Assembly: GCA_964390545.1 (NCBI GenBank)
Contig: CAYMJV010000002.1
Span: forward strand, 15,555 to 79,554
Source of the DNA: an uncultured Syntrophaceae bacterium
GTDB lineage: Bacteria > Desulfobacterota > BSN033 > UBA1163
Direction: 5' to 3'
Length of the DNA: 64,000 bases
The position numbers were made by a program, and so were the translations under genes. Numbering within the stretch: the first letter of the stretch is position 1; each line of letters opens with the position of its first letter. Below the pieces are notes generated by a model. That model worked only from the letters and a program-made list of their open reading frames with translations. It searched no databases and had not been told where the DNA came from. Below, piece by piece: positions 2,833 to 56,435 of the stretch.

Positions 2833-3449
2833 GATTCTCCTCCCTCTTCAGCTGGTTGATGAAGAAATAACGAAATCTCATTCACTTTGGCTTGGCCAAG
2901 GACGTCCGAATAGGCCTCTTCCACGATCACTCTGTCTTTGTGGATTGCCTTCACTTTTCCATCATGTCTTCCAATCGCTGTTCCTCTCTTTAAGAAATAG
3001 CCTCTCCCTTGTTGGTCTTCAACGAGGGCCACACTCCCCTCCGGGAGGGTGATAATGGCTACTAATCTCAGCTGACTGACGTCATATTTCTGCAGAGGCG
3101 TCAGAAAGGCGCTTTTGGGCATTTTTTCAGGCGTGAGCTGAATGAAGGGTCTAAAGGGATCCGCCTTTCCTACAGGACTATAAGAAAATACGGGCTCCTC
3201 TTTCTTGGCCACCTCCTTTTTCTCAACCTTCTCGGCCACTTGAACCGGCTCGGCCTTCTTTGTCTCAGCAACAGGTGTCTTTGCCTTCGGAGCAGCAGGG
3301 GGTGGAGCCGTCCCTCCCCCACAGCTAGACACAAGAAAGAGAAACACCACGGAGGCGGCTAAGAGAATGATCTTACTTCTTCGGAGCTTTCGGAATGTCT
3401 TCACCTTCTTCCCCAAAACCCGTTCTCTTTCCAATTTTTTTCTCCTCAC
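2829..3449 (-). CDS. pilP: Pilus assembly lipoprotein PilP
   Basis: Lipobox LVSSC and a Pro/Lys-rich linker. C-terminal PilP-like beta domain (LRLVAIITLPEGSVALVEDQQGRGYFLKRGTAIG). Sits between pilO and pilQ. The start is uncertain: the track start is GTG at 3449, and an internal GTG near 3404 follows GGGGAAG. Confidence 0.8.
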   Translation of the reverse strand: MRRKKLERERVLGKKVKTFRKLRRSKIILLAASVVFLFLVSSCGGGTAPPPAAPKAKTPVAETKKAEPVQVAEKVEKKEVAKKEEPVFSYSPVGKADPFRPFIQLTPEKMPKSAFLTPLQKYDVSQLRLVAIITLPEGSVALVEDQQGRGYFLKRGTAIGRHDGKVKAIHKDRVIVEEAYSDVLGQAKVNEISLFLHQPAEEGGES

Positions 3450-4065
3450 CTTTCTTTTCCTCGCTCTTTGTTTCTTCGGCTCTCTTCTCGAGAAACCGAT
3501 AGGTATTGACCAGGCACGAGGTCCTCACCAAAAGCTCTGCTTCTCCCTTGCCCTTGTCTTTATCCTTTGCTTGGATCATATTGAAATTGACCACATTGAT
3601 AATCCTTGGAAGTTTGCTCACCTTATCAAAGAAAATCCCCGTATTATGGTAGCTACCCAAAAACACCAATTCGATAGGGACTCTGGCATAAAATTGTTGA
3701 GCCTCTTCAGGCTTGGGCCTGAAGAGAGTGAAATCGAGTTTTGATTCTTTACCAAGAGCAGATATGTTTCTCAGAATCTCAGGAATTTCTTTCTCGTTGG
3801 GGAGTTGGGTGAGAGCATTCATCAGCTCAACATTCAATTGTTCCACTTGTTTCTTATATTTTTCAAATTCCTTCTCAATCGCCTTGCTCTCATTCAACTC
3901 CCTCACCAAGTTATTCAATTCACCCTTTAACGTTTTGAGTTCGTTCTGTTGGGGCATGAAAAAGGCATAAGCATAGAGGCCGATCACCACACAAATGAGC
4001 ACGACGAGGATCACCACCTTCTTGGATGTCGGAAGTTTATAGATCGCGTCCATCTTAATGGCCAT
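3373..4065 (-). CDS. pilO: Pilus assembly protein PilO
   Basis: Single N-terminal TM helix followed by a coiled coil (NELKTLKGELNNLVRELNES), then a PilO-like ferredoxin-type core. Sits between pilN and pilP. Has a K/E-rich C-terminal tail. Confidence 0.75.
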   Translation of the reverse strand: MAIKMDAIYKLPTSKKVVILVVLICVVIGLYAYAFFMPQQNELKTLKGELNNLVRELNESKAIEKEFEKYKKQVEQLNVELMNALTQLPNEKEIPEILRNISALGKESKLDFTLFRPKPEEAQQFYARVPIELVFLGSYHNTGIFFDKVSKLPRIINVVNFNMIQAKDKDKGKGEAELLVRTSCLVNTYRFLEKRAEETKSEEKKGEEKKIGKRTGFGEEGEDIPKAPKK

Positions 4066-4082: not shown

Positions 4083-4625
4083 TCACATGAAAATAATTTC
4101 GCATGAGAGGATGAACTTCTTCAACGGAATTTTACTTACTTCGATTTGCTCGCTGACGATTAAGTCGACATTCTTAAAAAGCTTTGATTTTCTGAGGTTC
4201 GTCATAAAATTCGCCACGGTTTCATCATCCAGGGCGACCCCCTCAATCCCCAGCTTCGATCCATCTTTCTTTACCGATTCGAAGTAGACTTTCTCTGGTT
4301 TATCAATACTTAATTCATCCAATACCTTTGCCGGACTCGCCTTCTCTTTCCTTAATAGATTGATGACATTCAATTTTTCTTGTAGAATCCTCTGCTGTTC
4401 TTTGGCTTTATTAAACTCCGTTGTCAAGGACTTATAACGTTCAATTTCTTTTCTCGTATTTGAGATCTGTGCGAGCGTCTTTTCTTTCTCGCCACCGATG
4501 AACCACTGAACACCAAAGAGCAACGCCAATACAACCGCCATGGAAAGAATGAACACGATCATTTCTTTCCTCACTCCAATTTTCTTCGTTCCTTTCCTTG
4601 CCTTGAGTAAGTTGATCTTTATCAT
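4083..4625 (-). CDS. pilN: Pilus assembly protein PilN
   Basis: N-terminal MIKINLL motif, one TM helix, coiled coil. 4-nt overlap with pilM. Confidence 0.8.
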   Translation of the reverse strand: MIKINLLKARKGTKKIGVRKEMIVFILSMAVVLALLFGVQWFIGGEKEKTLAQISNTRKEIERYKSLTTEFNKAKEQQRILQEKLNVINLLRKEKASPAKVLDELSIDKPEKVYFESVKKDGSKLGIEGVALDDETVANFMTNLRKSKLFKNVDLIVSEQIEVSKIPLKKFILSCEIIFM

Positions 4626-5680
4626 TTGTCCCCCACCCTTCTTGAGGCCAATCCTACGGCTACGGCCATGATGGGCCCGATGTCCCTCAGATAATCCAAG
4701 TCAAAATTCTTGCCGCTGTATTCAACTCTTTTGAAAGGATTTGCGACTTCAACCGGAAGCCCAATCTGTTGTTGCAAGACGATGTCAAAATCTTTAATTT
4801 TCGATCCCCCTCCGCTCAGGTATAACTTGCTCACCTTCTCATAGGTGCTTGTGGATTGAAAAAAATCGAGTGAATTCCCGATCTCGATGGCCAATGCCTC
4901 TGAGGCTGTTTTGAGCACATTTTGGATGGCGGGTTGAGAGGCGCCTTCCCCCTTGTTCCCCACTTTGATCCTTTCCGCCTCTTCATAATCGATATGGAGT
5001 TGACGTTGAATCTCTTCAGTAATTTGATTGCCCCCTTTGAAAATGTCTCTTGTGAAACTGGAGGTGTTGTTCCTGAGGATGTTAATATTCGTAATGCTGG
5101 CACCTACATTGGCGACCGCTACGGTCTCATCCTTGTCAATATCGTAATTGATTTCGAGCATATTCTCCAAGGCAAAGGAATCCGTGTCAATAATAACGGG
5201 ATTCAGTCCTGCTTCGACAATGACCGACTGATAATCATTGATAATATCCTTTTTAGCTGCCACTAAGACCACATCCATAAGATCGGCGTTTTCTGAGCTC
5301 GAACCCAGCATATGAAAATCAATATTCACATCATTAATATCGAAGGGGATATACCGCTCGGCTTCCCATTGAATCGATTCTTCCAATTCGGATTCCGTCA
5401 TGAAGGGTAATGAAATCTTCTTGACAATCACGGAATGACCTGAAACAGATGTCACAACATCCTTTCTCTTTGTTTTTGTCGTTGAAACGAGATCCTTGAT
5501 GGCATCAATGATGGTGACGGAGTCCATCAAGGCTCCGTCCACAATGGCCTCCGGAGGCAGAGGAGATAGGCCCAAATTCTGCAATTTGAACCCGCCTTTC
5601 ACCCGATTCAGTTCGACCAGTTTGATCGAACTTGACCCAATATCAAGCCCAACGAAATCCTTCTTTTTTCCTAAGAACAT
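4622..5680 (-). CDS. pilM: Actin-like pilus assembly ATPase PilM
   Basis: 352 aa. N-terminal FVGLDIGSSSIKLVEL phosphate-1 motif and LYLSGGGSKI near the C-terminus. First gene of pilMNOPQ. Confidence 0.9.
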   Translation of the reverse strand: MFLGKKKDFVGLDIGSSSIKLVELNRVKGGFKLQNLGLSPLPPEAIVDGALMDSVTIIDAIKDLVSTTKTKRKDVVTSVSGHSVIVKKISLPFMTESELEESIQWEAERYIPFDINDVNIDFHMLGSSSENADLMDVVLVAAKKDIINDYQSVIVEAGLNPVIIDTDSFALENMLEINYDIDKDETVAVANVGASITNINILRNNTSSFTRDIFKGGNQITEEIQRQLHIDYEEAERIKVGNKGEGASQPAIQNVLKTASEALAIEIGNSLDFFQSTSTYEKVSKLYLSGGGSKIKDFDIVLQQQIGLPVEVANPFKRVEYSGKNFDLDYLRDIGPIMAVAVGLASRRVGDK

Positions 5681-5837
5681 TTTAACACCCCTTTTAATGT
5701 GGTAAATTCGTAATCAATTATTCCCATATTTTCCCAAAAGTCAAGAAAAAAATTTTATTAACCCCTAGAATTCTAATGAGTATCCACAGAAACCTGATAA
5801 TTCATTTTAGACTTTTCTAATAACTTACTAAATTTTT

Positions 5838-7214
5838 TCATAAATTATCTGACAAACTATATTTTCTTATCTTGGCCCTCAAAGTGGCCCTGGAAATACC
5901 TAAAACCTTTGAAGCTTTTGATTTATTCCATTCCAGGCTCTTAAGGACTTTGGAAAGATGTATCTTTTCCACATGGTCCAAGGACATTCCGTCAGTAATT
6001 TCAGACACTTCAGGCGCAGACATTGCCCGATCAAATCCTCCGGTCTGCTTTAATTCAAAGGGAAGCTGCTTATGGGTGATCAAATCTTGATCAGTAAGAA
6101 TCATAGCTCTCTCGATCACATTCTTTAACTCTCGCACATTTCCTGGCCAGTGATATTGGATCAATAACTTCTTAGCTTCATCGCTGAAACCTCGAATTTT
6201 TTTGTTATGTTCCCTATTGTTTTCCTCGATAAACAAATTTGAGAGGAGTAAAATATCCTCAACCCTGTCTCGCAGGGGTGGCATTTCAATGACCATAACC
6301 TTTAATCGATAATATAAATCTTTTCGGAATAACCCCTCCCTGACCAGGGCCTCTAAGTTCTTATTGGTAGCAGCAATAATACGAATATCAACCTTGATTT
6401 CCCTCTCCCCTCCCACTCTCATAAAGGTCTGATTTTCAAGGACCCTCAGAATCTTCGATTGCAAAAAAGGTTTCATATCACCGATTTCGTCTAAGAAGAC
6501 CGTTCCCCCATCGGCTAACTCAAAAAGCCCTTTCTTTGTATTCTTAGCGTCTGTGAAAGCTCCCTTCTCATATCCAAAAAGTTCTGATTCCAATAACGAA
6601 TCGGGAATGGCGCTACAATTAATCTTCATCAAGGGTTTATTGCCCCTTTTGCTATTATAATGAATGGCATTCGCGGCTAATTCCTTCCCTGTTCCGCTTT
6701 CTCCCTGAATCAATACGGAGGTTTTGTGAGTTTTACTGATCATTCCAATCAATTCTTTTACATAGTGAATCTGGGGGCTGACCCCATGGATATGGCTGTT
6801 TTGATCCTCCTTTTGTTGCCGATGCAACCTCCGGACCTCATTGATTAAACTTTTTGTCTCTAACCCTTTCTCGATCAACAGCTTCAACTCTTCCAATTCA
6901 AAAGGCTTATTGATATAGTGATAAGCGCCTGATTTCATGGCTGACACTGCGGTTTGAACATCGGAATACGCCGTCATCATAATGACTAAGATTTCCGTGT
7001 CTAATTCCTTGACCTTTTTCAAAACTTCAATGCCATCCACATCGGGCAGCCTCATATCCAGCAAAACGAGATCAATGATATTCTTTTTGATAATCGACAG
7101 GGCTCCATTCCCTGCCCCCACTGAAAAGATCTCATACCCCTTCTTCTTCAATACATCGGAAAGGGTCTGTTGCATCACTTCATCATCATCAACAATCAGA
7201 ATCGATGGCTTCAT
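5838..7214 (-). CDS. Sigma-54-dependent response regulator (NtrC/PilR family), copy 1
   Basis: REC domain (ILIVDDD...LLDMRLPDVDG). AAA+ Walker A GESGTGKE. GAFTGA-type loop (EKGAFTDA). C-terminal Fis-type HTH (KSKASKVLGISRATLRAKIRKY). 4-nt overlap with the upstream kinase. Confidence 0.88.
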   Translation of the reverse strand: MKPSILIVDDDEVMQQTLSDVLKKKGYEIFSVGAGNGALSIIKKNIIDLVLLDMRLPDVDGIEVLKKVKELDTEILVIMMTAYSDVQTAVSAMKSGAYHYINKPFELEELKLLIEKGLETKSLINEVRRLHRQQKEDQNSHIHGVSPQIHYVKELIGMISKTHKTSVLIQGESGTGKELAANAIHYNSKRGNKPLMKINCSAIPDSLLESELFGYEKGAFTDAKNTKKGLFELADGGTVFLDEIGDMKPFLQSKILRVLENQTFMRVGGEREIKVDIRIIAATNKNLEALVREGLFRKDLYYRLKVMVIEMPPLRDRVEDILLLSNLFIEENNREHNKKIRGFSDEAKKLLIQYHWPGNVRELKNVIERAMILTDQDLITHKQLPFELKQTGGFDRAMSAPEVSEITDGMSLDHVEKIHLSKVLKSLEWNKSKASKVLGISRATLRAKIRKYSLSDNL

Positions 7215-8386
7215 GTCGTCTCCGAAATCACGGGCAAATTGATTATGAAGGAAGTCCCTTTCTCTAATTTGCTTTCGACCTTGATCGTTCCCCCGTGTTT
7301 CTTAATGATTTGATAGGTGATCGACAGCCCCAATCCAATGCCCTTTGGTTTTGTGGTAAAGAAGGGGTCAAAAATCCTGTGGATGATATTGGGTGGGATC
7401 CCTTTCCCAGTATCGGATATAACAATCTTGATAAAATTCTGACTGGGCCCATCTTGAGAATAGGAAACCGTAGGGTTGACCTCAATCTTCAGCTCCCCCC
7501 CGTTCGGCATCGCCTGAATGGCATTTAAAAATAAGTTAAGGAACACCTGATACATTTGGTTCTTGTCGACCTTGATCTTTGGAAGTTGTGGATGATAGGC
7601 TTCGACAAATCGTACTCCCTGGTCTGCAATCTCCTTAAAAAGAAAAGGGATGATTTCATTGATAACGTCTTTCACAGAACAGTCAATCAAATTCAACTTT
7701 TGAGGCTTCGCAAAAGAAAAAAATGTTTTCAGAAGTTCATTGAGTCGATCGATCTCTTTCGTGATGCGGTTTAAGTACTCTCGCCGAGAATCGTCTTTCG
7801 ACATCTCCTCGCTGAGCGCCTGGGCAGTTGTCTTGATCCCGGCAAGGGGGTTGCGAAGTTCATGAGCGATACCCGACGAAAGTTTCCCCAAAGAAACCAG
7901 TCGATCCATTCTTAGAATTTCTTCCTGAATCTTAAAAACATTGGTCATATCCCGGAAAATCACGATCTTCCCTAGGGTCTCCCCTCGAATGCTCAGATGG
8001 TTATTAATGGTAAATCCAACGGGAAACTCCACTTTATCTTTCCGTCTCATCCAACCTTCTTTTCTCGTTTCGAGGTCATCGGGGTTATTCAGAAGGGAAT
8101 GAACAATGCTTTGTTTTTCCCTGAGGCCGAAGATCCCGAAAGATTTCCCAATCAGTTCATCCTTCGAATAGCCTAAGATTCTCTCTCCAGCTTTATTGAT
8201 ATAAGTCACGGTATCATGGATCCCTGCAATAATGATTCCGCTCCCAATGCTCTGAATAATGCTTTCCATAAAATTCTTAACATCCTCTAATTCCTGAGTC
8301 AGTCGATAAATCGACTCTTCTTTCTTGACCAGCTCATCAAGCATTTCCTTTTTTGAAATATTCTGATTCAAGATGTTTTGATCCAT
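7211..8386 (-). CDS. Cytoplasmic PAS-domain histidine kinase
   Basis: No TM helix. PAS-like region (ITYINKAGERILGYSKDELIGK). H-box GIAHELRNPLAGI. HATPase N/G boxes (NAIQAMPNGG, DTGKGI, GIGLGLSI). Confidence 0.85.
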   Translation of the reverse strand: MDQNILNQNISKKEMLDELVKKEESIYRLTQELEDVKNFMESIIQSIGSGIIIAGIHDTVTYINKAGERILGYSKDELIGKSFGIFGLREKQSIVHSLLNNPDDLETRKEGWMRRKDKVEFPVGFTINNHLSIRGETLGKIVIFRDMTNVFKIQEEILRMDRLVSLGKLSSGIAHELRNPLAGIKTTAQALSEEMSKDDSRREYLNRITKEIDRLNELLKTFFSFAKPQKLNLIDCSVKDVINEIIPFLFKEIADQGVRFVEAYHPQLPKIKVDKNQMYQVFLNLFLNAIQAMPNGGELKIEVNPTVSYSQDGPSQNFIKIVISDTGKGIPPNIIHRIFDPFFTTKPKGIGLGLSITYQIIKKHGGTIKVESKLEKGTSFIINLPVISETT

Positions 8387-8401
8387 GGGAAAATCAGCTC
8401 A

Positions 8402-9592
8402 TCAAAATTTTTTCAAATTCAAAATTGAAATCTCTGTGGGGCGTTCCTGATACGTCCAATGAGCGATTCCGGTGAAATATTCGCCATATTTTCCACCGGT
8501 CTCCATTTGAGTGGAAAGCCTTTCCAGTACCTGGTCAACCATCAACCCTTTATACTCTCCATCTTCATTCACTGCCAGAATTTTGATCTCTGCTTTGCGG
8601 CTCCCCTTAGGGATTGAAAAAACCTTTCTTAGATCAATGAGTCTGACTTCGAAATCTTTTACCCGAATCTTCTGTTGATCAACATACCTATCCTGATGAT
8701 CCACTGGAACTTTGAACAATTTGTATATCTTGTCACTTTCCACACCCAACAATCTTTCCTCGACTTTGAAAACCGTAATATTAATGGGTACCGAACGAAT
8801 CGCGACTGGCGGCTCTGCAGGCTGCGTTGAACCTCGATCCACCTTTAACAGGAAGAGGTCCATCTTCTGATAAAGTTCTCCCATTTTTTCCAAGAATAAA
8901 TTCATCTTCTTCGATAGTTCTCCGATCTGGTTCTCCATCTTGATGAAAATTCCGGACCTTTCGATCTCCTCCCTTAAACCCGGGGCAGGCCGTTCAAGTT
9001 TGGCCTCTTTCAATTCCTCCAAACAGGAATATCTCGCCTGGATTCCCATATAAGCGAGCTGTTTGTAGATGTTTAATTCACTATCCGCTTCTTTTCTCAT
9101 CAGGAGTTTTAGGGTCTCCTTGGAATCCATTAAGAACTTGACCAAGGGTGCCCGAATCTTGTCTTCATTTCTAACCATATAGTCTAGGACTTTATCCATG
9201 AGGTTCAGAACCGACCCGACTTCAGGTTTTTCTTTTAAGGTCTGCCGTAGGGCGAGGACTTCTTCTTTTGTCTTCGCCAGATTCTCTTTATTGATCTCCC
9301 ACTCCAAGGACAAGAGTTGGCCCTCCATCTTCTCAAGGGGTTTGAAAACCTGAGCAGCTGGAGGCGGAGAAGTGGGGGGCGGTGCCGAAGTACTCTCAAA
9401 ATCAAAATCCTTCTCCACTCGAAACGGTTGTTCTTTGACTGGAGGTTGCGGTGGCTTGGAGATAGTCTCGGCTGGCCCTCCTGTTTTCTCGACGAATAAA
9501 CGATCCACAGCGGAGTCGATCTCTTCCTCCAACCCTTTGATATCATTCTCTCCCAAGACTTTATCCATTTTCAGCGCCCTCTCGGTGTTCAC
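8402..9592 (-). CDS. Orphan CheW-like-domain protein with Pro-rich and coiled-coil N-terminal region
   Basis: The C-terminal ~140 aa fit the CheW fold pattern (ITVFKVEERLLGVESDKIYKLFKVP ... VRLIDLRKVFSIP ... KILAVNEDGEYKGLMVDQVLE). The N-terminal 250 aa are unrecognised. 4-nt overlap with mglA. Confidence 0.6.
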   Translation of the reverse strand: MNTERALKMDKVLGENDIKGLEEEIDSAVDRLFVEKTGGPAETISKPPQPPVKEQPFRVEKDFDFESTSAPPPTSPPPAAQVFKPLEKMEGQLLSLEWEINKENLAKTKEEVLALRQTLKEKPEVGSVLNLMDKVLDYMVRNEDKIRAPLVKFLMDSKETLKLLMRKEADSELNIYKQLAYMGIQARYSCLEELKEAKLERPAPGLREEIERSGIFIKMENQIGELSKKMNLFLEKMGELYQKMDLFLLKVDRGSTQPAEPPVAIRSVPINITVFKVEERLLGVESDKIYKLFKVPVDHQDRYVDQQKIRVKDFEVRLIDLRKVFSIPKGSRKAEIKILAVNEDGEYKGLMVDQVLERLSTQMETGGKYGEYFTGIAHWTYQERPTEISILNLKKF

Positions 9593-10215
9593 TTGGCTTG
9601 TTTATCAAGCAACATAATTTTTCGACTCACGTCCTTGACCACCAGCTTACTTATTTCTCTCAGCGTCTCAAAGACTCCCGTCCCTTTCACCGCACTCGCA
9701 GGAAAGGAAGGCACCTTCAACATCGAGTTGAGATCCTTTTCCAATACCTCGACCGGAAGGATCTCCGAATCTGTTCTATCGAGGTCTCGTTTGTTGTATT
9801 GAAGGACGAGAGGAACGGTGCGGATGCTGACCCCCTTCTCCGCTAAATTCTTTGCTAAGTTGATCAAGCTTTCTATATTCTTTTTCCTCTGAACCTTCAA
9901 CGAATCTCCGACGAAGACGACCCCATCCACTCCCTTCAAAACCAATTTCCGTGTGGCATCATAATGGACTTGCCCCGGAACCGTATAAAGCTGAACCCGG
10001 ATATCAAACCCCCTGATCTTTCCCAAATTCAATGACAAAAAATCAAAAAAGAGGGTCCGATCTCCCTTGGTATCGATGGAGACCATCTTGCCTTTAGTAT
10101 CTTCCTTGGTGGTACCAAAAATATACTGGAGATTCGTCGTTTTTCCGCAAAAGCCGCAACCATAATAAACGATCTTACATTGAATCTCGTCTTTGCTGAA
10201 ATTGATAAAAGGCAT
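9589..10215 (-). CDS. mglA: Ras-like polarity GTPase MglA
   Basis: Near-colinear with my recollection of Myxococcus MglA: MPFINFSKDEIQCKIVYYGCGFCGKTTNLQYIF, TLFFDFL, LYTVPGQVHYDATRKLVLKGVDGVVFV, QYNKRDL. Confidence 0.9.
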   Translation of the reverse strand: MPFINFSKDEIQCKIVYYGCGFCGKTTNLQYIFGTTKEDTKGKMVSIDTKGDRTLFFDFLSLNLGKIRGFDIRVQLYTVPGQVHYDATRKLVLKGVDGVVFVGDSLKVQRKKNIESLINLAKNLAEKGVSIRTVPLVLQYNKRDLDRTDSEILPVEVLEKDLNSMLKVPSFPASAVKGTGVFETLREISKLVVKDVSRKIMLLDKQAK

Positions 10216-10249
10216 TAACTTTCTTCCACCTGCCTATTGAAGGTTGACG

Positions 10250-10672
10250 TTATAATTCTATGGCTACCCTTTTTTTCTCAAAAATCGTTGAGAGGATTCG
10301 AGCAAGCTCCTCCGTAATTTTACCGATTTGTAATCGAATCACTCCCAAGGAGGTCCGGTCATCAAAAAGGGTTACCAAGATGACATGGTCACCGATCGCC
10401 GAAAAATAGACATTTTCACTCTTTCCCTTATGAAACAATAGGGTGAATTCTTCTTCCCCTAATATCTTGGCAATTTCAGCGGTGGCTCCAAAGTTGGCCG
10501 CCGTCAGGGCTGAAAGGGAAGACATATCAATCGCAGGTGCATTTCCATGATGGGCAATGAGTTGCCCCGAACGGTCAATTAAGAGCACGGATTGGGCGAG
10601 TGAGGAAGCCACTACTTTATTTAAGCAAAAGTTTATTTTTTCCAAATCTTTTTGTGTGATAATAATGTTCAT
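10250..10672 (-). CDS. mglB: Roadblock/LC7 GAP protein MglB
   Basis: 140 aa. LLIDRSGQLIAHHG, SSLSALTAANFGA, LFDDRTSLGVIRLQI match the MglB/Roadblock pattern. Sits directly upstream of mglA, as in Myxococcus. Confidence 0.85.
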   Translation of the reverse strand: MNIIITQKDLEKINFCLNKVVASSLAQSVLLIDRSGQLIAHHGNAPAIDMSSLSALTAANFGATAEIAKILGEEEFTLLFHKGKSENVYFSAIGDHVILVTLFDDRTSLGVIRLQIGKITEELARILSTIFEKKRVAIEL

Positions 10673-10716
10673 CTTCGATGAATTAGGATCTCTCGCGGAT
10701 ATCTTTTCTAAGAATA

Positions 10717-11493
10717 TTACACTCTGTCATCACTTTTTCGCATCGCCTCAACCAGCAGGTGTTCCCAGCTCTGATGGATCGTTTGAAGGGGTGACACGAT
10801 ACCGATATTTGAAACAAATTCCCCTTCCTGCCAGCTCATGATCTTATAGAAAGCATCCGTTCCCTTCTCTTCTCCACATTCCGCATGTACAATTTCCCCC
10901 TCATTCAAGTAAATGACGCCCTTTTCACTATCTTTGGTAAAAGTCAGGGCTGTGGTCACACGACTGAGGCAGTTCATCTGAATGATATCCGTCAGTTGCA
11001 AGCCGAAGACCTTCCCTTGAAACCCTTTTTTCTTTCCAATCAAATCAATAATGATCTTTCGGATATCGGATATCTCAAAAGGCTTCTCCACATAATAGAG
11101 GGAACCTCGACGATTGGCTTCCTTCTGGACATCGGAAGACCCATAGGCAGTCATGATGATGACTTTCGTGTCGGGATAATCTTTCTTAATCTTTACAAGC
11201 AGGTCTAAGCCATTAATATCTGGCATGCGAATATCTGAAATAACCAGATCAATTTTATTATTCCTGAGTAGGGTTAGAGCCTCCTTCCCGTTATTTGCAA
11301 TGATCACTTCATACTTATCCTTGTCTTTCGAAAGGCTTTTGGACATGCTCCACGTTAAAGTCTCCTCATCATCCACAATCAAGACCTTCTTTAAGTCCTT
11401 TAACATATTAATATTCTCTGAGTATGGTAAAATTCCACTCATTGTATTCAATATTAACGATGTAATTAGCAAAATAAGTGCCAATTTTTTCAA
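10717..11493 (-). CDS. PatA-type response regulator (REC + DUF4388/PATAN domain)
   Basis: REC domain (VLIVDDEE...VISDIRMPDINGLDLL...KVIIMTAYG). C-terminal DUF4388 pattern (FQGKVFGLQLTDIIQMNCLSRVTTALTF...GVIYLNEGEIVHAECGEEKGTDAFYKIMSWQEGEF). The hydrophobic first 29 aa are probably not translated, and the likely start is the ATG at 11406 (MLKDLKK). Confidence 0.8.
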   Translation of the reverse strand: MKKLALILLITSLILNTMSGILPYSENINMLKDLKKVLIVDDEETLTWSMSKSLSKDKDKYEVIIANNGKEALTLLRNNKIDLVISDIRMPDINGLDLLVKIKKDYPDTKVIIMTAYGSSDVQKEANRRGSLYYVEKPFEISDIRKIIIDLIGKKKGFQGKVFGLQLTDIIQMNCLSRVTTALTFTKDSEKGVIYLNEGEIVHAECGEEKGTDAFYKIMSWQEGEFVSNIGIVSPLQTIHQSWEHLLVEAMRKSDDRV

Positions 11494-12035
11494 AAGATTT
11501 AAGTACTTAATTCACTTAAGGGTTCGCATAGTTCTATCACTTCATGGTTTCATAGAATTATACTTAAGGCCTAAGAAATGGTCAATATTTATCCATTGGT
11601 AAAAAAATGTCCCCCTCCCCCCCTCTTTTTTTTGTGAATCATCCAGCCTATTTCATGCCTCGAAATCCTTTGATCAAAAGAGGGTTCTTTTTTGAATAGG
11701 CCCGGGTCATTTGAAGAAAAACCTTTCTCATTGGAATCTCCGTATTGATATGAACCTTCTGCGGGTCAGAATGTCTATTTAAGAAAATATCGTTTAGAAA
11801 CCCTATCTAAAGCGTGGAGGAATGTTTGAATCCATCCTAGGCACATTTGGGTTTTTTGAAATCCCTTCTCCTGCCGTTCTCATACGGTATTTAAATCATC
11901 AGAATCCAATGAGCATGAACCTTTCACCGCATTCTTTTTCGATTTGAACAAGGTCTGAATGATTCTTCACCCCAGCCTAACCCACTGAATGGAACGGATG
12001 CTTCAGGAAAGTTTTTAAAGAAAGTTTTTAAAAAC

Positions 12036-12064
12036 TTGACTTTTCAGGGGTCTTTAGGTAAGTT
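12036..12064 (+). promoter_or_regulatory. Candidate sigma-70 promoter for the TPR gene
   Basis: TTGACT (12036-12041), a 17-nt spacer, then TAAGTT (12059-12064). It coincides with the ORF-track TTG start, which argues that the real start is the ATG at 12105. Confidence 0.4.
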
Positions 12065-12104
12065 TTTATTAATTAAATTTTTGCAATCGAGAAACTTTTT
12101 CCCA

Positions 12105-13103
12105 ATGGATAAAGAAAAAATATTGAAGACAGCTCAGCAATATGTGCTGAAAGGTCAAACTGAAAAGGCCATCAAAGAATATCAAAAAATTGTGAAGGCC
12201 ACCCCAAAGGATATTCGAGCCCGTCTTAAATTAGGGGATCTCTATTTAAAAGATGGCGAAAACGAAAAAGCCATAGAGGAATATTTGAGAGTGGCTGAAC
12301 TCTACGAAGAAGAAGATCTCAACTCCCGGGCCATCTCAAGCTATAAGAAAGTCCTATCCTTAAACCCAAAACTGATTGAAGCCTATCACAAGATTGCTGA
12401 ATTATATTTAAAGGAAGGATTAAAAGGAGATGCTAAGAATTGTTATCATAGCATATTAAAAATGAGGCCCCATGACCAAAAGGCGCTAGAGGCCTTTAAG
12501 AGTCTTGCAGAAGATCAACCGCCTAAGGAAGTCCCCAAGAGGGCCCCTTACCAAGAAGAAATTCCCAAGAGGGTCCCTCAACAAGAAATCGTTACTCCGA
12601 GGTATTCAGCCCCTATTCCACAGACCAGAGAAGTTGAAGAAGAGATCCCACTCACCTCCCCTCTCCCTCCCGATAGTCCTGACGTATCTTTTCAAAGCGA
12701 ACCTGCTTTTGAAACAGAACCCCCGTCTGCCCCCGACAAGGATTCGGAAATGCATTACCATTTAGGGATTGCATACAAAGAGATGGAGCTCTTTGACTAT
12801 GCCATTTCAGAGTTTGAGCAGGCTGCTTTGAACCCTTCTATACAATTTGATTCATATATCATGCTAGGAAATTGTTTTATGGAGAAAGGGGCCTATGATA
12901 AATCAATTGAACATTATAGGATGGCAACAGAAATAAAAGGTTTATCAAAGGAAAAGCTGGCTCAAATCAATCTCAATTTGGGCTTAGCCTATGAAGCCAA
13001 TGGGATGATTTCGGACGCCCTGGATGCCTATCAGCTTGCCCTGAAATTAAATCCTTCCTCCTCCGAAGCCAAAGAAAAAATTAGGCGCCTCCAGCAAGGG
13101 TAG
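12105..13103 (+). CDS. TPR-repeat protein with a central Pro/Glu-rich linker
   Basis: N- and C-terminal TPR repeats (AIKEYQKIVKATPKDIRARLKLGDLYL; ALDAYQLALKLNPSSSEA). The linker carries a short tandem repeat (EVPKRAPYQEEIPKRVPQQE). The track ORF begins at 12036, and I prefer the ATG at 12105. Confidence 0.7.
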   Translation: MDKEKILKTAQQYVLKGQTEKAIKEYQKIVKATPKDIRARLKLGDLYLKDGENEKAIEEYLRVAELYEEEDLNSRAISSYKKVLSLNPKLIEAYHKIAELYLKEGLKGDAKNCYHSILKMRPHDQKALEAFKSLAEDQPPKEVPKRAPYQEEIPKRVPQQEIVTPRYSAPIPQTREVEEEIPLTSPLPPDSPDVSFQSEPAFETEPPSAPDKDSEMHYHLGIAYKEMELFDYAISEFEQAALNPSIQFDSYIMLGNCFMEKGAYDKSIEHYRMATEIKGLSKEKLAQINLNLGLAYEANGMISDALDAYQLALKLNPSSSEAKEKIRRLQQG

Positions 13104-13307: not shown

Positions 13308-16163
13308 TTATGGAGTGACTTCCCTCCAGTAGAGAATTTCTTTAGTGGTGGAAGGTGAATATCCTTTTCTCGTCAAGATTTCGCCGCTCGTTGTTCCGAT
13401 CGTCACGGATGCCTTGCCTTCTAAATTGACTGAGATGACAGGAGCTGAAGGGATTCCCTCTCCGATCGTCTCGGATCGGGCGGAAGGCCTCCCCACTGAG
13501 TAATCATCCAGGACGAGAGCCCCTCCTCCTGAGAGATACTCAACAACATAAAGAGAAGCCTCACCCGTTCGATTACATTCATCCGTCGTAGCATAGGTAT
13601 AAGTTGTAAAATAGAGTAAATTGCTGAACACGGCCGGCTTCGATAACACTTTTTCAGATCTCGCCAACTGAATGTACCACCCTTTCAATGGCCATTGGGG
13701 AGTAGTGAACGTCTGATCGGTGAAATCGGTAACATTCCTCAGATTGCCCTCGTCTCTTGGGTAGGAACCTATCCCATCGTCCTTTACAGCATAAAATTTG
13801 TCCCTGCTATTAGTATCCGTTGGATTTTCTCTGTCCCCTGTCCCAAAAAAAACCCAGGGAGTTCGATGACTGTCCAAGGAGACTGCGGGTTGATAATAGA
13901 GCGGTCCCTTGTCAGCAGGTGCCCCTCTCGGTCTAAACAAGACTGTCCCTGTCCAGTTTCCCACGTCAGTGGATGAGATGTCGAAAACCCACATCTGCCC
14001 TGATAAATCTCCAATATAGACTTTGTCGATATACCCATTGAAATCCGTGTCCACAGCAGTGGGAGGCGCTGTCATCGAGTAGTCCATACGGGGCAATCCA
14101 GAGAACTCAGCCAAGATATCCCCTGTTTTTATATCAATTACAAAGAAGCCCTTCCCGGTGACATTTGTATTATCAAACCCGCCTCCAATAAAGGCGACCC
14201 ATCTTTCGCGCAGCTCGTCCCCTACTCTGATTCTAATTCTTCCTATCGCAGGTTCTGACCAACTCTGTCCAAGTTTCGCAAGGGTCGCTGCATCTGTTGC
14301 TTTCGGGAACTCCCAGAGATATTTCGGGTTCAACGTATCGGTGACATCCAGAGCGAAATAATGTTTTCCACCCTTTCTCAAGCCCGAGATTAAAACCGTC
14401 TTCCACTCATCCCTGGCCTTTGTGATACCAGATGGGTTGCTGTCACTGTAAAACCACACATCCGTCACCTTAGGCGATGAATCCACGTAATAGGTGTGGA
14501 GTGTAGCACTATTTTTCAAACTCCCAAGCAGGCTATGGGGGATGAACGCCCATTCTTCCGCTCCGGTTTCGGCATTGAAGGCATGGAGCATCCCATCATT
14601 GGCTCCAACAATGATCACCTTTGTTCGATTCTTGTTTCTTTGATAAAACCCTTCACTCCCATCCGGGCATTGATTGAAACACCGGTCGATAAAAAAACGA
14701 GAGGGTTCTCCAATGATGACGGCATTGGAATGGAAGATATCCCCTAATTTCCATAACCTATCATGTGTATCATATCCTGCGCTTGGGGCGAAAGGTGCAT
14801 CTATGTCGTAAGTATCTTGTCCTCTAATGTGCAAAATGAGTTTGTCACGTTCAGCATCAGTGGCTACATTCAAATCTTCTTTGGTTAGGTTGGCAGAGGT
14901 GAAGGATTGCAGTGCCCCCCTTACATAGGTATAAATTTTTCTCCCAGAACTGGCTTTGTTATTCAATTGCTCGCCTGCATCCCATTTGGGATTAATGGGA
15001 TTATTATCATTATCGACTTCAAGGGTTCCATCTTCCCGTAATTGGAAGGCCTTTAAGTTCCCTCGCCAGAAGGGGGTTTGTTGGGGCATAAAGGATGAAA
15101 TGTAGACCACATCCCCCTCTACCATTCGGACTGTAGGGACAGAAGGAGCCGTATAGGAATAGGACCTCTCCCTAATGTATCTGATAATTGTCTTCAGTGC
15201 ATTCCTGAGTTGGGAGGCATCCTCTGCTAAAAATGCATAGCCGGAAAGATCATAGTTGGCAGGATCCGCATTGGTATCTGTGATGCTACACAAATCTTCT
15301 CCTGCCGAAGGGAGATACTGGGTGATATTATAGGCATCAGCATTTCCAGAATTCGGTTCTAGAGGATTGTCCGTCCCGCCATATTTCGCAACCCAATTTA
15401 AGGTCTTTTTCAAATGGACCGGCATGTTTGCACCGAACCCAATCGCAAAGACCTGGAGCGGGACGACATTAGGAGCAGACGAAGGGGTGTAAAGCTCTTT
15501 GGCCCGCAGGACGGTCATAAACCTCCTCTTAAACATGTCCGAGGCATTCTCGGAGCAATCCCCGCTGCAGGCGACCGTGTCACTACCATCCGTAATAAAA
15601 ACCACAAACTTCTGGCGGCATGCGATGGCTTGATCATTCGGATTCACATGGTCCCGAAAATAAATTCCCCCCTCTACCAGGGATGCACCCAGAGGAGTAC
15701 ATCCTGTCGCTGTCTCTGCTGCATCAGACACTTTGTCCCAAATTGTTTTATACGCACTCCCTACCTCCGTCTCATTTTGAAACACTTTAATCTTACCCGT
15801 CATGGGATTACTATCATCCTCATCGGCCTCCCCTACCCCTCTGAATCTCATATATCCTATTTTGACATTCAAACTGCTCTGATCATTCGAATCAATGTAG
15901 TTCCCATCGTGATTCGAATCTTTACCGCTGTCATCATCATCAAGAAGGTCGTAGATCACATCCCTCGCAATATCAATTCTTCGATCTGGAGAGGAAGCGG
16001 CATTCCCTGCAACATCCCAATTCATGCTTCCGGACATATCCAAAAGGATGAGGGCTTCCGGCTTTACCCCCAACGTAAAGAGGTCTGTATCATCCGCCAT
16101 AGAGGGGCAGACGCAAATGAAAAAGGTACCCGTCACGAGTAGGAATAAAGCCCATTTTCTCAT
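13308..16163 (-). CDS. pilY1: PilY1-like tip adhesin (vWA + beta-propeller), module A
   Basis: 951 aa with a signal peptide. vWA MIDAS motif (LILLDMSGSM). PilY1 C-terminal motifs (YFALDVTDTLNPKYLWEF; Ca-site-like DTDFNGYIDKVYIGDLSGQMWVFD). Confidence 0.85.
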   Translation of the reverse strand: MRKWALFLLVTGTFFICVCPSMADDTDLFTLGVKPEALILLDMSGSMNWDVAGNAASSPDRRIDIARDVIYDLLDDDDSGKDSNHDGNYIDSNDQSSLNVKIGYMRFRGVGEADEDDSNPMTGKIKVFQNETEVGSAYKTIWDKVSDAAETATGCTPLGASLVEGGIYFRDHVNPNDQAIACRQKFVVFITDGSDTVACSGDCSENASDMFKRRFMTVLRAKELYTPSSAPNVVPLQVFAIGFGANMPVHLKKTLNWVAKYGGTDNPLEPNSGNADAYNITQYLPSAGEDLCSITDTNADPANYDLSGYAFLAEDASQLRNALKTIIRYIRERSYSYTAPSVPTVRMVEGDVVYISSFMPQQTPFWRGNLKAFQLREDGTLEVDNDNNPINPKWDAGEQLNNKASSGRKIYTYVRGALQSFTSANLTKEDLNVATDAERDKLILHIRGQDTYDIDAPFAPSAGYDTHDRLWKLGDIFHSNAVIIGEPSRFFIDRCFNQCPDGSEGFYQRNKNRTKVIIVGANDGMLHAFNAETGAEEWAFIPHSLLGSLKNSATLHTYYVDSSPKVTDVWFYSDSNPSGITKARDEWKTVLISGLRKGGKHYFALDVTDTLNPKYLWEFPKATDAATLAKLGQSWSEPAIGRIRIRVGDELRERWVAFIGGGFDNTNVTGKGFFVIDIKTGDILAEFSGLPRMDYSMTAPPTAVDTDFNGYIDKVYIGDLSGQMWVFDISSTDVGNWTGTVLFRPRGAPADKGPLYYQPAVSLDSHRTPWVFFGTGDRENPTDTNSRDKFYAVKDDGIGSYPRDEGNLRNVTDFTDQTFTTPQWPLKGWYIQLARSEKVLSKPAVFSNLLYFTTYTYATTDECNRTGEASLYVVEYLSGGGALVLDDYSVGRPSARSETIGEGIPSAPVISVNLEGKASVTIGTTSGEILTRKGYSPSTTKEILYWREVTP

Positions 16164-16329
16164 TATTTTCTTACCTCTCTTCAGGGGTTGAAAATCCTAA
16201 AATAAAGGAGAGTTCCTTGAAGATCAAATCCGGCCCTATGCGGTTGTCGTCTCCCCTCCATGTCGCCGGTTGTCATTCGTATTCCGGATGATGGCTTTGG
16301 CTTTGTAGAGCGAAGGGCAGCGTGTGAGA

Positions 16330-16677
16330 TCAAGGGTTTCTTTTAGGGGTCCTTATGGTCCTTATAACAGTGATCTTTTCCGGATAGATCCCCTCTGTCT
16401 TCCGAACCCCTTCCACTCTCACGGAGAGTCCCCGTTTCAGTTGATTCATTTTCAATTGGTTATTATTCTCGTCAACAATCTTCGTATTCGAAGTGATATA
16501 AACCCTTTGTTCATTGACAACGATAAATCTGCGGCTCTCAGGAATGCTGTCAATCGATCCAAAGAAAGAAAAGACTCCTTCTTTCTTCCCCTGAGAGAAC
16601 CCCGAGCTCGCGAGGAACAGTGTCACCACCAAAAAAACAAACTGAAGCAGGAAAACCTTTTTGACTTGCATCATCAA
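16330..16677 (-). CDS. Small exported protein, paralog of 20450..20809 (PilY1-associated)
   Basis: 115 aa, signal peptide, GAGGAG RBS. Shares a pattern with the 119-aa ORF at 20450 (IVVNEQ/IVNER ... NT ... VEG/LEG ... EKI). Confidence 0.6.
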   Translation of the reverse strand: MMMQVKKVFLLQFVFLVVTLFLASSGFSQGKKEGVFSFFGSIDSIPESRRFIVVNEQRVYITSNTKIVDENNNQLKMNQLKRGLSVRVEGVRKTEGIYPEKITVIRTIRTPKRNP

Positions 16678-16736
16678 CTCCTCAATCGATTCTTAAGGAT
16701 TTTAAATTTGATTTTAAGGATTTTAAACTTATTAAA

Positions 16737-17213
16737 TTAAAAAGGACCGAATCTCACTTGCGCTTCAATTTCCTTTGTGGCCCCAAAGGATTCACCTGTC
16801 GCATTGATCTGAAATTGTAAGAAATTACCTGGGGTGCGTTGGGAATAGCCCGTGGGAGAATCGCCCAGTTCAAACCCCCCCTTTCCTCTCTCAATCGGTG
16901 GAGGGCAAGGCCCAAGATATTGAACCGGCTTTGGGGCTCCTTTGTCCAAGGCGGCTCCGCTCCAGCCATAGGAGTCTTCCCCAATCTTCATTCGAGGAAT
17001 GGGTTGATAATAATTTTCTGGAACTCGCTTTAGACCTACCTGGAAGATGGCCTCAGAAGCATAAAAGGCGCCCGTTCCCACCCTTTCGTTCCCCGATATG
17101 TTTGTCTCAAAGGTGGTCGTGCTGATCGCACTGATTCCAATGAAGGTTAAAATAAGAAGCATGATCAGAGCAATAACTAACGCCACACCCTTTTCATTGC
17201 TTAATCCTTGCAC
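16737..17213 (-). CDS. pilX: PilX-like minor pilin, module A
   Basis: PilX_N-type start (EKGVALVIALIMLLILTFIGISAISTTTFETNISGNER...AFYASEA). Sits after pilW. Confidence 0.75.
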   Translation of the reverse strand: MQGLSNEKGVALVIALIMLLILTFIGISAISTTTFETNISGNERVGTGAFYASEAIFQVGLKRVPENYYQPIPRMKIGEDSYGWSGAALDKGAPKPVQYLGPCPPPIERGKGGFELGDSPTGYSQRTPGNFLQFQINATGESFGATKEIEAQVRFGPF

Positions 17214-17243
17214 AAGAGCCTCCCCCTTCTCCCGTTACGGACT

Positions 17244-18125: not shown

Positions 18126-18514
18126 TGCGACCTGATCGTCGAAAAGGAAATATTGTGATCCGCACCATCATTCCAACGGACCGTGTAATTGACCTTTAAA
18201 TAACTTCCGTTGGGATCAGAAATGGATTCCACCGAATAAGAACGATTGAAGGTGAGATCTGAAATGACTACGGTCCCGTCATTATGACTTCCTATGCCTA
18301 AGGGTGGATCATTCAAGGGTAAGTTCTTTAAGAATTCGAGTCGATCTTGGGCCGCATACGTGGCCTGCATGAGGTTATTGCTGAAAAAATTTCCTCGGAC
18401 GGATGTGACTTGGAGGCTGGCGATGGCGAGAAGACCGATGGCAAGAAAAACCACGCAGATCAAAACTTCGATTAGTGAAAACCCTTCTTTTCTAAAAACC
18501 ATCGATCGGTTCAT
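18122..18514 (-). CDS. pilV: PilV-like minor pilin, module A
   Basis: Leader RKEG/FSLIEVLICVVFLAIGLLAIASLQ is typical PilV. 4-nt overlaps on both sides. Confidence 0.8.
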   Translation of the reverse strand: MNRSMVFRKEGFSLIEVLICVVFLAIGLLAIASLQVTSVRGNFFSNNLMQATYAAQDRLEFLKNLPLNDPPLGIGSHNDGTVVISDLTFNRSYSVESISDPNGSYLKVNYTVRWNDGADHNISFSTIRSQ

Positions 18515-18972: not shown

Positions 18973-19138
18973 GCTACACCCTCCCTTTATTCTGATAAAA
19001 TCAGAAATTTTTGTCAATATATTTTTCTTGCAAAAACAGTCTGATTTACACCAGTTGACAGTATTTTACAGATTGCAAAGCAAAAAACTTGATCAAATAA
19101 CTTCCGATTCTTAACTTTCTATAAAAAGAATTTAAAAA

Positions 19139-19154
19139 AGCAAATGTTATGCCA
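19139..19154 (-). promoter_or_regulatory. Sigma-54 promoter of minor-pilin module A
   Basis: The minus strand reads TGGCATAACATTTGCT, that is TGGCAT-N5-TTGCT with exact GG/GC spacing. About 170 nt upstream of the module A first gene. Confidence 0.7.
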
Positions 19155-56322: not shown

Positions 56323-56435
56323 GACAACTCTCCTTATTTTGGGGGAATCAATAATAGGTTCGGAAACCCTGAAAATGCGGCCATTGAACGAACTCTCTTT
56401 GCCACCTTCGGGGATTGTCCATTCCCACTTAGGTG

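Follow-up and report, generated by a model that had tools for sequence, protein, structure and literature searches.

Genes and Domains of the Locus

We analysed a stretch of 64,000 nucleotides (the window) from an uncultured Syntrophaceae bacterium (assembly GCA_964390545.1, contig CAYMJV010000002.1, positions 15,555 to 79,554), which holds a large type IVa pilus (T4aP) supercluster. The subject of this study is the locus at 5838-11493, where a MglB-MglA polarity module, a two-component pair and a multidomain "CheW-like" protein, here called the scaffold, are encoded directly before pilMNOPQ. Open reading frames (ORFs) of at least 150 aa were scanned across the window, except a few lying antisense to or nested within annotated genes. 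As shown in Table 1, the locus consists of six ORFs, all on the minus strand, encoding a receiver (REC)-PATAN response regulator, MglB, MglA, the scaffold, a PAS histidine kinase (HK) and an NtrC-family bacterial enhancer-binding protein (bEBP). A first-pass annotation had described six co-directional genes between 11.5 and 5.8 kb, and searches of Pfam, NCBIfam and the PDB confirmed every one of its domain calls. Its gaps of 44, 34 and 15 nt, the 4-nt overlap of the HK and bEBP genes and the 157 nt between the bEBP gene and pilM were also right, with mglA lying 34 nt downstream of mglB. The 4-nt overlap that it placed between mglA and the CheW-like gene is not real, as a start at ATG 9568 leaves a gap of 20 nt. 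The gene had been listed as an ORF at 8402-9592 (396 aa). ATG 9568 begins MDKVLGEN and has GAGAGGG ahead of it; because the equivalent Met is conserved and several homologues have a stop codon just upstream of it, the gene almost certainly starts there. The homologues of the REC-PATAN protein all align from the ATG equivalent to 11406. This alignment, and a conserved sigma-54 promoter inside the extension, place the start at ATG 11406 and mark TTG 11493 as a longest-ORF artefact.

The phospho-acceptor residues of the REC-PATAN protein are intact. In the 258-aa version of the ORF, Pfam placed REC at residues 37-148 and DUF4388 (PATAN) at residues 159-256, and the receiver is 38% identical to that of the bEBP of the same operon. 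MglB matched the NCBIfam MglB model at 1.8e-20, under the 200-bit equivalog cutoff. It is a clear homologue of Myxococcus xanthus MglB, alignable only to residues 6-136 of that protein; the C-terminal ~20 residues are missing, and the window protein therefore has no counterpart of the C-terminal extension. In Myxococcus this extension reportedly acts as an allosteric regulator of MglA (PMC6785124). MglA is 58% identical to M. xanthus MglA and contains the P-loop GCGFCGKT (GxxxxGKT) and the motifs DRTLFFDF and PGQV. Its intrinsic arginine finger R53 and catalytic glutamine Q82, which are kept between the two proteins, are invariant in the MglA alignment (A4).

The PAS kinase is cytoplasmic, with no hydrophobic stretch resembling a transmembrane segment when the sequence was read by eye; its best NCBIfam match was AtoS-like, under the cutoff. 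For the bEBP, the Pfam scores across its REC, Sigma54_activat and HTH_8 domains were 1e-67, 1.4e-29 and 1.2e-12, and the NCBIfam matches were AtoC/NtrC-like, under the equivalog cutoffs. Its loop reads GAFTDA rather than the canonical GAFTGA. We set aside GAFTDA as a mark of an inactive bEBP because it is common to both bEBPs of the window and to the homologue in a distant relative (locus L036).

A gene for a tetratricopeptide repeat (TPR) protein lies divergent from the operon. Residues 24-141 of this protein matched positions 1-117 of 1065 in the NCBIfam SgmX model at 2e-38, with 132 bits against a full-length cutoff of 1800. Because the match to the model begins there, the gene probably starts at ATG 12105 and not at the listed TTG 12036. 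Neither a CheA gene nor a gene for a methyl-accepting chemotaxis protein (MCP) was found among the scanned ORFs of the window, as the first-pass annotation had said of the locus, or in any of 37 related loci. No minus-strand terminator was found inside the operon, no genes for RomR, RomX, RomY or MglC were seen locally, and tRNA and Rfam scans of the window returned nothing.

Table 1. Features of the six-gene operon and of related genes and promoters in the window
Feature	Position	Strand	Evidence or description
pilQ	112-2832	-	named by conserved position after pilM/pilN and by earlier labels
pilP	2829-3449	-	named on the same grounds as pilQ
pilO	3373-4065	-	named on the same grounds as pilQ
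pilN	4083-4625	-	Pfam PilN 6e-18
pilM	4622-5680	-	Pfam PilM_2 1e-81
pilM sigma-70-type promoter	5717-5744	-	TTGACT-16-AATAAT; conserved in 18 of 20 aligned relatives
NtrC-family sigma-54 activator (bEBP)	5838-7214	-	REC-AAA+-HTH_8; Pfam REC/Sigma54_activat/HTH_8
PAS-HisKA-HATPase_c histidine kinase	7211-8386	-	Pfam; H-box SGIAHELRNPL
Scaffold ("CheW-like" protein)	8402-9568	-	388 aa
Scaffold, CheW/P5-like domain	8405-8773	-	Pfam PF01584 4.5e-6; PDB CheW 2qdl 1.3e-5
Scaffold, "LSLEWE" domain	8996-9340	-	five-helix bundle in AlphaFold2 model, CheA P1/Hpt-like; no conserved His
Scaffold, acidic N-terminal helix	9485-9568	-	GLEEEIDSAVDRLFVEK; consensus MDKxxGExDxKGLEEEIDSAVDRLFVEK
MglA, Ras-like GTPase	9589-10215	-	PDB M. 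xanthus MglA (6hjh, 5ymx) 3e-67
MglB, Roadblock/LC7 GTPase-activating protein	10250-10672	-	140 aa; Pfam Robl_LC7 1e-13; PDB M. xanthus MglB 7e-29
REC-PATAN (DUF4388) response regulator	10717-11406	-	229 aa; Pfam Response_reg 7e-27 and DUF4388 5e-19
Sigma-54 promoter	11468-11483	-	TGGCACTTATTTTGCT; perfect -24/-12 consensus; 77 nt upstream of ATG 11406
Sigma-70-type promoter	11557-11585	-	TTGACC-17-TATAAT, 11 of 12 matches
Dyad, putative operator or upstream activating sequence	11578-11596	not assigned	ATGGATAAATATTGACCAT; consensus TGGTCAA-N3-TTGACCA
SgmX-like TPR protein	12105-13103	+	divergent from operon; ~332 aa; many TPR Pfam matches
Sigma-54-like element	19139-19154	-	TGGCATAACATTTGCT; 1 mismatch; ~120 nt upstream of first minor-pilin gene
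Second bEBP and HAMP histidine kinase	25798-28926		beside prepilin peptidase PilD (28950-29714)
Major pilin (pilA)	57153-57608	-	
pilA sigma-54-like promoter	57759-57774	-	TGGCATGGATTATGCT

Conservation of the Gene Order

One genome per GTDB species was scanned with an alignment of the CheW-like protein as the query. The 24 loci obtained all came from metagenome-assembled genomes (MAGs) labelled Thermodesulfobacteriota, Syntrophaceae or Syntrophorhabdus, and the GTDB representatives yielded no cultured member of the CheW-tailed clade. Gene order was checked by tblastn with the window proteins, and metagenome contigs anchored on MglA served as a reciprocal test. The first-pass proposal had hung on the gene order being conserved in relatives. 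The order PilY1, divergent SgmX-like TPR gene, REC-PATAN, MglB, MglA, CheW-like protein, PAS-HK, bEBP and PilM-N-O-P-Q was kept in all 37 related loci, 24 of them in genomes and 13 on metagenome contigs, up to the ends of each contig, and the SgmX-like gene was conserved and divergent wherever the upstream flank exists. In the 13 metagenome loci, all with the same arrangement, MglA was 85-95% identical to that of the window; 67 more distant loci (MglA 53-60% identical) had mglB-mglA only and lacked the arrangement. Recurrence in 24 species-level genomes and 13 metagenome contigs shows in the sequences compared that the arrangement is far from chance. Its presence in the 37 related loci and absence from the 67 more distant mglBA loci indicates that it is a stable trait of one clade and not a general property of mglBA.

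Identity to the window proteins within the clade was ~90% for MglA, ~83% for the REC-PATAN protein and the bEBP and ~77% for the HK. That of the CheW-like protein was only 37-51%, which makes it the fastest-evolving of the operon's proteins. The most distant locus (L036) kept genes for PATAN, MglB, MglA, the CheW-like protein (23% identity), HK and bEBP as well as pilM, and its CheW-like homologue matched Pfam CheW at 5.9e-13 over the full length. Another distant locus (L115) kept the CheW-like, HK and bEBP genes and pilM in that order. The bEBP that follows the CheW-like and HK genes there (2860-3750) was called at 296 aa with no receiver domain, and may be a REC-less activator or an artefact of gene calling or a frameshift.

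Domain Architecture of the Proposed Scaffold Protein

A typical CheW has one domain and a length of about 150-170 aa, and its gene accompanies those for CheA and MCPs. The "orphan CheW" of the first-pass annotation is more than a CheW: it is 388 aa long and multidomain, with three additional conserved regions. The family alignment resolved four conserved parts, namely an acidic N-terminal helix, a helical middle domain, a long helix and a CheW/P5-like domain, with a variable Pro-rich linker between the N-terminal helix and the middle domain. The N-terminal helix was near-invariant across 135 family members, and relatives of its motif were seen in distant members (DLDAFEKQVDLEVDRLFG in P0190 and DLDEEIESAVDSLFVE in L036). 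The middle domain, here called the LSLEWE domain, carries the invariant motifs LSLEWE and FLxDSKE. Conservation within the protein is highest in this domain and in the N-terminal helix, and not in the CheW domain.

Modelled alone with AlphaFold2 (AF2), the LSLEWE domain gave a predicted local distance difference test score (pLDDT) of 78 and a predicted TM-score (pTM) of 0.71. The full-length model was poor (pLDDT 47), with the middle domain well modelled, and therefore nothing was concluded from its C-terminal half. When the PDB was searched with Foldseek, the only matches at a probability of at least 0.8 were CheA P1 domains (1i5n, 2lp4, 8c5v_C, 3kyi, 3kyj) or P1-derived designs. An hhalign comparison with Escherichia coli CheA P1 was collinear over 81 columns (pairwise E 8e-4) and paired MEQHLLVL, LFLETKD and LDAYKQ of the CheA P1 with MEGQLLSL, FLMDSKE and LNIYKQ of the domain profile. 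Several results count against such an assignment. The Foldseek matches were weak (E 0.02-0.25, TM 0.45-0.57), and the hhalign probability was only 24%. Pfam scans of 25 isolated middle domains at E values up to 10 matched neither Hpt nor any other family, and two middle-domain profiles searched against PDB sequences gave no match. Because these sequence searches were empty, the P1 assignment rests on structure and one weak hhalign result. Taken together, the models and the alignment make homology of the LSLEWE domain to CheA P1 reasonably likely.

CheA P1 is a four-helix bundle whose phospho-accepting His lies on helix B. No His-rich column was present in the LSLEWE domain across the 135 sequences, and the residue aligned to His48 of CheA is Q in the window protein and variable in the family. 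Pfam detected neither HATPase_c nor H-kinase_dim in the scaffold. Several members of the family are annotated as CheA by the Joint Genome Institute (JGI). We read the scaffold as a CheA derivative from which the kinase has been lost, while P5 and, in degenerate form, P1 were retained.

The LSLEWE Domain in Other Lineages

A profile of the middle domain was searched against 1.84 billion protein cluster representatives and gave 228 matches. Besides the CheW-tailed family, these included proteins of 600-1400 aa with two or three copies of the domain and very acidic repeats. They came from Desulfobulbaceae, including the cable bacteria Candidatus Electrothrix, and some are annotated as "FimV". Since the long proteins contain no Pfam domain at all, we rejected the idea that they are ChpA-like multi-Hpt kinases. 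The genomic context was looked up for eight of them. In all eight the gene lay directly downstream of a Roadblock gene, and in six a gene for a 201-aa Ras-like GTPase, 53-57% identical to MglA of the window, stood between the two. The LSLEWE domain was found in none of the 67 other mglBA loci. Because an LSLEWE gene follows the Roadblock(/Ras) genes in 8 of 8 contexts, these gene neighbourhoods indicate that the domain marks genomic partners of mglB/mglA in at least two lineages. Neither the CheW-like family nor a cassette of mglB, mglA and such a gene (mglB-mglA-X) was described in the literature searched, and the scaffold probably represents a new family of MglBA-linked proteins.

Six of the Desulfobulbaceae loci (L105 and L109-L113, including Ca. 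Electrothrix) have the order mglB-mglA-X, where X is very acidic, 570-1280 aa long and has 2-4 matches to the LSLEWE profile. The gene after X in L111 and L113 encodes a Zn_ribbon_4 protein, reminiscent of the Zn-ribbon domain by which GltJ binds MglB. In L106/L107 and L108 the LSLEWE protein is encoded right after the Roadblock gene with no GTPase gene between. The opposite strand of L106 encodes a REC-GGDEF protein, a PilB-like MshEN/T2SSE ATPase, a REC protein, an HK and a PilZ protein, and a PatA_N-REC-CheB gene lies near the LSLEWE gene of L108.

Promoters of the Operon

The sigma-54 element before the operon, TGGCACTTATTTTGCT, is the sole perfect match to the -24/-12 consensus in the window. 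With at most one mismatch, it was found in the same place in 27 of 31 relatives with enough upstream sequence, and three further relatives have TGGTAT-N5-TTGCT at this position. Those 27 sites make up 27 of all 44 matches with at most one mismatch in 525 kb. The sigma-70-type promoter was the top-scoring promoter-like site in 5500-12200 and was conserved in an alignment of 16 upstream regions, ~100 nt further upstream than the sigma-54 element. Its -35 hexamer is the right half of the dyad (Table 1), the centre of which lies ~105 nt upstream of the -24 element. In 30 in-clade loci, including the window, the dyad is placed ~189 nt before the ATG of REC-PATAN. It was not conserved elsewhere in the flanks of the related loci, which held no further copies, and a search of the window returned only one weak look-alike at 58109-58127.

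Since tandem sigma-70/sigma-54 promoters, a dyad at enhancer distance and an HK-bEBP pair in last position form the glnALG design, this layout suggests that the operon is autoregulated by its own bEBP at the candidate dyad. The first-pass annotation had linked the GTPase switch to sigma-54 transcription. A conserved sigma-54 promoter does exist, and it fronts the six-gene operon, not pilM; of a circuit in which the GTPase feeds into transcription, we saw no sign.

Promoters of pilM, pilA and Other Genes of the Window

pilM is preceded by a conserved sigma-70-type promoter (Table 1), and no sigma-54 element was found before it in the window. We therefore rejected the idea that the operon's bEBP drives pilM through sigma-54 in the window and in most relatives. 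Three relatives (L004, L020 and L021) carry the sigma-54-like sequence TGGCATAAGTTTTGC between this promoter and pilM, and for that reason pilM may be sigma-54-dependent in some species. A conserved inverted repeat, TTCTAA...(~29 nt)...TTAGAA, lies at ~5772-5811 of the window, upstream of the sigma-70-type promoter of pilM.

The second bEBP of the window (25798-27177) is 43% identical to that of the operon and also has GAFTDA. With its HAMP kinase, it is probably the equivalent of PilS/PilR. A dyad TTGTC-N8-GACAA (57913-57930), ~150 nt upstream of the sigma-54-like promoter of pilA, is PilR-like and unlike that of the operon, and this difference suggests that pilA is under a separate PilR-like regulator. 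An inverted-repeat search upstream of the other sigma-54-like promoters revealed nothing in common.

The look-alike of the operon's dyad, ATGGCTAATAATTGACCAC at 58109-58127, lies ~134 nt upstream of a sigma-54-like element, TGGCTCAAATGTTGCA (58251-58266, +), which precedes two methyltransferase genes (58362-59800). The same regulator may have a second target here, or the resemblance may be due to chance.

Elsewhere in the window, two paralogous sets of genes for PilY1 and minor pilins (PilX, PilW, GspH-like) occupy 13308-19017 and 20823-25054. Between the pilus assembly genes and pilA lies a glycosylation/polysaccharide block of ~25 kb (29781-55797), with three asparagine-synthase paralogues, two radical-SAM/SPASM enzymes, many glycosyl- and methyltransferases and a WbqC-like protein; a role of this block in glycosylating pilin is possible. 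A second pilin-like gene with a ComP_DUS (DNA-uptake minor pilin) domain is located between pilA and the glycosylation genes (55885-56484, -).

Discussion

These results are best explained by a clade-specific operon in the T4aP supercluster of uncultured Syntrophaceae-like Thermodesulfobacteriota, relatives of sulfate reducers, in which a polarity module and an HK/bEBP pair are placed in one transcription unit and act as outlined here. We give this explanation a probability of roughly 0.55. The polarity module would comprise MglA, its GTPase-activating protein MglB, a dedicated scaffold and the divergent, short SgmX-like TPR effector, and the second module would be a PilS2/PilR2-like pair of cytoplasmic PAS kinase and bEBP directly before pilMNOPQ. 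The PAS kinase would phosphorylate the bEBP, which would bind the dyad, shut the sigma-70 promoter and fire the sigma-54 promoter by the logic of glnAp1/glnAp2. With the PAS signal present, positive feedback would raise the whole polarity module. MglA-GTP and the SgmX-like protein would send the extension ATPase to one pole, PATAN would contact PilB/PilC as in cyanobacteria, and the extension motor would be acted on by both PATAN and the SgmX-like protein. Through its pseudo-Hpt domain the scaffold would dock the receiver of REC-PATAN to MglA/MglB, much as RomX links RomR-REC with MglA-GTP or FimL links PilG with FimV, and its CheW-like domain would provide a second docking surface. Since the two receivers of the operon are similar in sequence, that of REC-PATAN may be served by the same PAS kinase as the bEBP.

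Several observations weigh against this explanation. All members of the clade are MAGs, and PilB, PilT and PilC, on which the proposed output would act, are encoded outside the window. The CheW match of the scaffold is barely above the Pfam cutoff (26.8 bits against 23.5, over 94 of 138 profile positions), and the CheW part of the AF2 model is below 40 pLDDT. The PATAN protein of L036 has no REC domain, so that a role of the scaffold in docking REC is not universal. RomX (8ZNA) was not in the top 50 Foldseek PDB matches of the LSLEWE domain, the presence of 8ZNA in the library being unverified. As for regulation, conservation of the dyad could partly reflect the -35 hexamer alone, a different transcription factor could bind it, and the second bEBP of the window could drive the sigma-54 promoter instead.

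Enteric glnA-ntrB-ntrC (glnALG) is autoregulated from tandem sigma-70/sigma-54 promoters, glnAp1 and glnAp2. The operon resembles it in having a candidate activator site that covers part of the sigma-70 promoter and lies ~100-130 bp ahead of the sigma-54 start, and an HK and a bEBP at its end. The cargo differs, being a polarity module here and glutamine synthetase there, and only one dyad is visible. The sigma-54 promoter could instead be under another activator, for example the PilR-like bEBP at 25798-27177. In that case the bEBP of the operon would have different targets (minor pilins, pilA, distant genes or, in some species, pilM), and the dyad would be the operator of an unrelated repressor at the sigma-70 promoter. 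The window does contain two bEBPs that are 43% identical, and further sigma-54-like promoters at 19139-19154 and 57759-57774; the sigma-54-like element before pilM in L004, L020 and L021 would fit as well, as would the single dyad, whereas many bEBPs use two or more sites. However, the dyad stands at the canonical distance of an upstream activating sequence and is strictly tied to the operon, the pilA dyad is of a different, PilR-like type (TTGTC-N8-GACAA), and an operon that ends in HK-bEBP behind tandem sigma-70/sigma-54 promoters is the classic autoregulated glnALG design. We consider control by another activator rather unlikely, and favour autoregulation by the operon's own bEBP.

The modules could also be independent and co-located because all of them serve the pilus, with the CheW-like protein coupling a remote CheA/MCP array of the Frz, Chp or Dif type. 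Each pairing is already known (PMC4316618; PMC6060248), a CheW domain is recognisable in the scaffold, and a remote che cluster could exist, as only 64 kb of the genome is visible. Frz reportedly feeds into MglA/MglB in Myxococcus (PMC3441718). Against independence stand the single promoter region, the tight spacing, the lack of an internal terminator and the invariant order in 37 loci. Coupling to a remote array fits poorly with a protein that is most conserved in its N-terminal helix and LSLEWE domain, not in CheW, and with LSLEWE proteins that follow mglB/mglA in lineages where no attached CheW domain is recognisable. Independent modules with a remote array are thus improbable, and we retain the joint operon with a dedicated scaffold.

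How far the locus is a new circuit, as the first-pass annotation had suggested it might be, can be judged by comparison with known systems. The combination is conserved and includes a scaffold family that is probably new; much of the rest is a juxtaposition of known pairings. MglA/MglB/SgmX, PATAN near mglBA and PilS2R2 in the pil cluster are already known. What is new is the modules in one conserved sigma-70/sigma-54 operon, the REC-PATAN order, the short SgmX-like protein and, above all, the LSLEWE/CheW scaffold. The mglBA, sgmX and pil genes lie apart from each other in Myxococcus, whereas in the window they form one block inside the pil supercluster. SgmX of M. xanthus is a protein of 1060 aa with 14 TPRs, and only its N-terminus matches the TPR protein of ~332 aa that is encoded alongside mglBA here. 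SgmX is the MglA-GTP effector for T4aP that licenses PilB at the pole, and its C-terminal TPRs bind MglA-GTP (PMC11580455).

The first-pass annotation had likened the REC-PATAN regulator to PatA and PixG. In PatA-type regulators (PatA, PixG and PixE), PATAN is N-terminal and REC is C-terminal, and PATAN binds PilB1 and PilC in Synechocystis (bioRxiv 10.1101/2021.06.11.447907). PATAN is fused to a receiver in both cases, and here the order is reversed and the gene is not within a che-type operon. PATAN beside mglB/mglA was already reported by Makarova in 2006 and Wuichet in 2014 (PMC4316618). A second pair, PilS2R2, lies inside the Myxococcus pil cluster (PMC6060248; PMC6211767). The pair of the operon is likened to it by position, being an HK/bEBP pair beside pilMNOPQ and additional to a PilSR-like pair; pilS2-pilR2 was reportedly placed directly upstream of pilM by Wall and Kaiser in 1999. 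The operon's pair differs from it in being co-operonic with mglBA, and the sigma-54 promoter observed belongs to this same operon. The actinobacterial conservon combines CvnA (HK), CvnB (Roadblock), CvnC and CvnD (GTPase) (PMC4316618). As here, one operon contains an HK, a Roadblock protein, an uncharacterised protein and an MglA-family GTPase, but the MglA group is another and there are no sigma-54 activator, PATAN protein or pilus genes; CvnC is probably unrelated to the scaffold.

CheA3 of Rhodobacter sphaeroides consists of P1 and P5 only. The scaffold resembles this protein and FimL in having a probably P1-like domain, with Q at the position aligned to His48 in the window protein, and a P5/CheW-like domain. 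It differs in that no similarity to Pfam Hpt is detectable, in that the family is tied to mglB/mglA and not to a Chp/Che operon, and in its extra acidic N-terminal helix. FimL of Pseudomonas has Hpt-like domains with Gln for His; in T4P signalling it is a polar scaffold that the receiver protein PilG requires in order to localise to the pole (PMC3019171). That the scaffold is a catalytically relevant CheA derivative like CheA3, acting in phosphotransfer or as a receiver phosphatase, is very unlikely: the order of P1-like and P5-like domains, the Foldseek matches to CheA3 P1 (3kyi, 3kyj) and the JGI labels of several members as CheA would fit, but the P1-like domain has no conserved His, the position aligned to His48 varies, and no P4 kinase partner is encoded nearby. 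We accordingly keep the scaffold as a docking protein in the proposed operon.

RomX of M. xanthus is a small helical bundle that bridges the receiver of RomR and MglA-GTP (bioRxiv 10.1101/2024.02.20.581209). The likeness is one of concept only: between mglA and the two-component genes, the operon has a gene for a protein with a helical-bundle domain, and it also encodes a REC protein. RomX is a three-helix bundle of 11 kDa, its relation to the scaffold is an analogy, and it was not recovered by our sequence searches. As pure speculation, the conserved N-terminal helix of the scaffold could stand in for the missing MglB extension.

More broadly, the LSLEWE domain might define an unrecognised family of MglA/MglB partners, polar scaffolds that couple a receiver domain, and with it two-component or chemosensory input, to the GTPase switch. 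The family would occur in two forms, one short and CheW-tailed in the Syntrophaceae-like clade and the other long, acidic, FimV-like and multi-copy in Desulfobulbaceae. We hold this view of the family, including its two forms, tentatively, at somewhat less than even odds. If it is true, these scaffolds would fill the role that RomR and RomX have in Myxococcus, and CheA-derived pseudo-phosphotransfer domains would have been recruited more than once as adaptors of small GTPases. If the P1-like assignment holds, the scaffold would join FimL as a second example of pilus control through scaffolds built on Hpt domains that lack the His.

The mechanisms by which MglA-type GTPases are recruited and regulated are known in Myxococcus and, in part, in Bdellovibrio and Thermus. 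To our knowledge, RomR, RomX and RomY are poorly conserved outside Myxococcus. Because of this, and because the LSLEWE family is encoded right after mglB/mglA in several lineages of Thermodesulfobacteriota, it is a concrete candidate for the missing regulators or effectors of MglA. The operon itself offers a compact, testable case of putative sigma-54 autoregulation wired to a spatial polarity switch. If confirmed, a new class of MglBA partners would be of real interest to the field of bacterial polarity.

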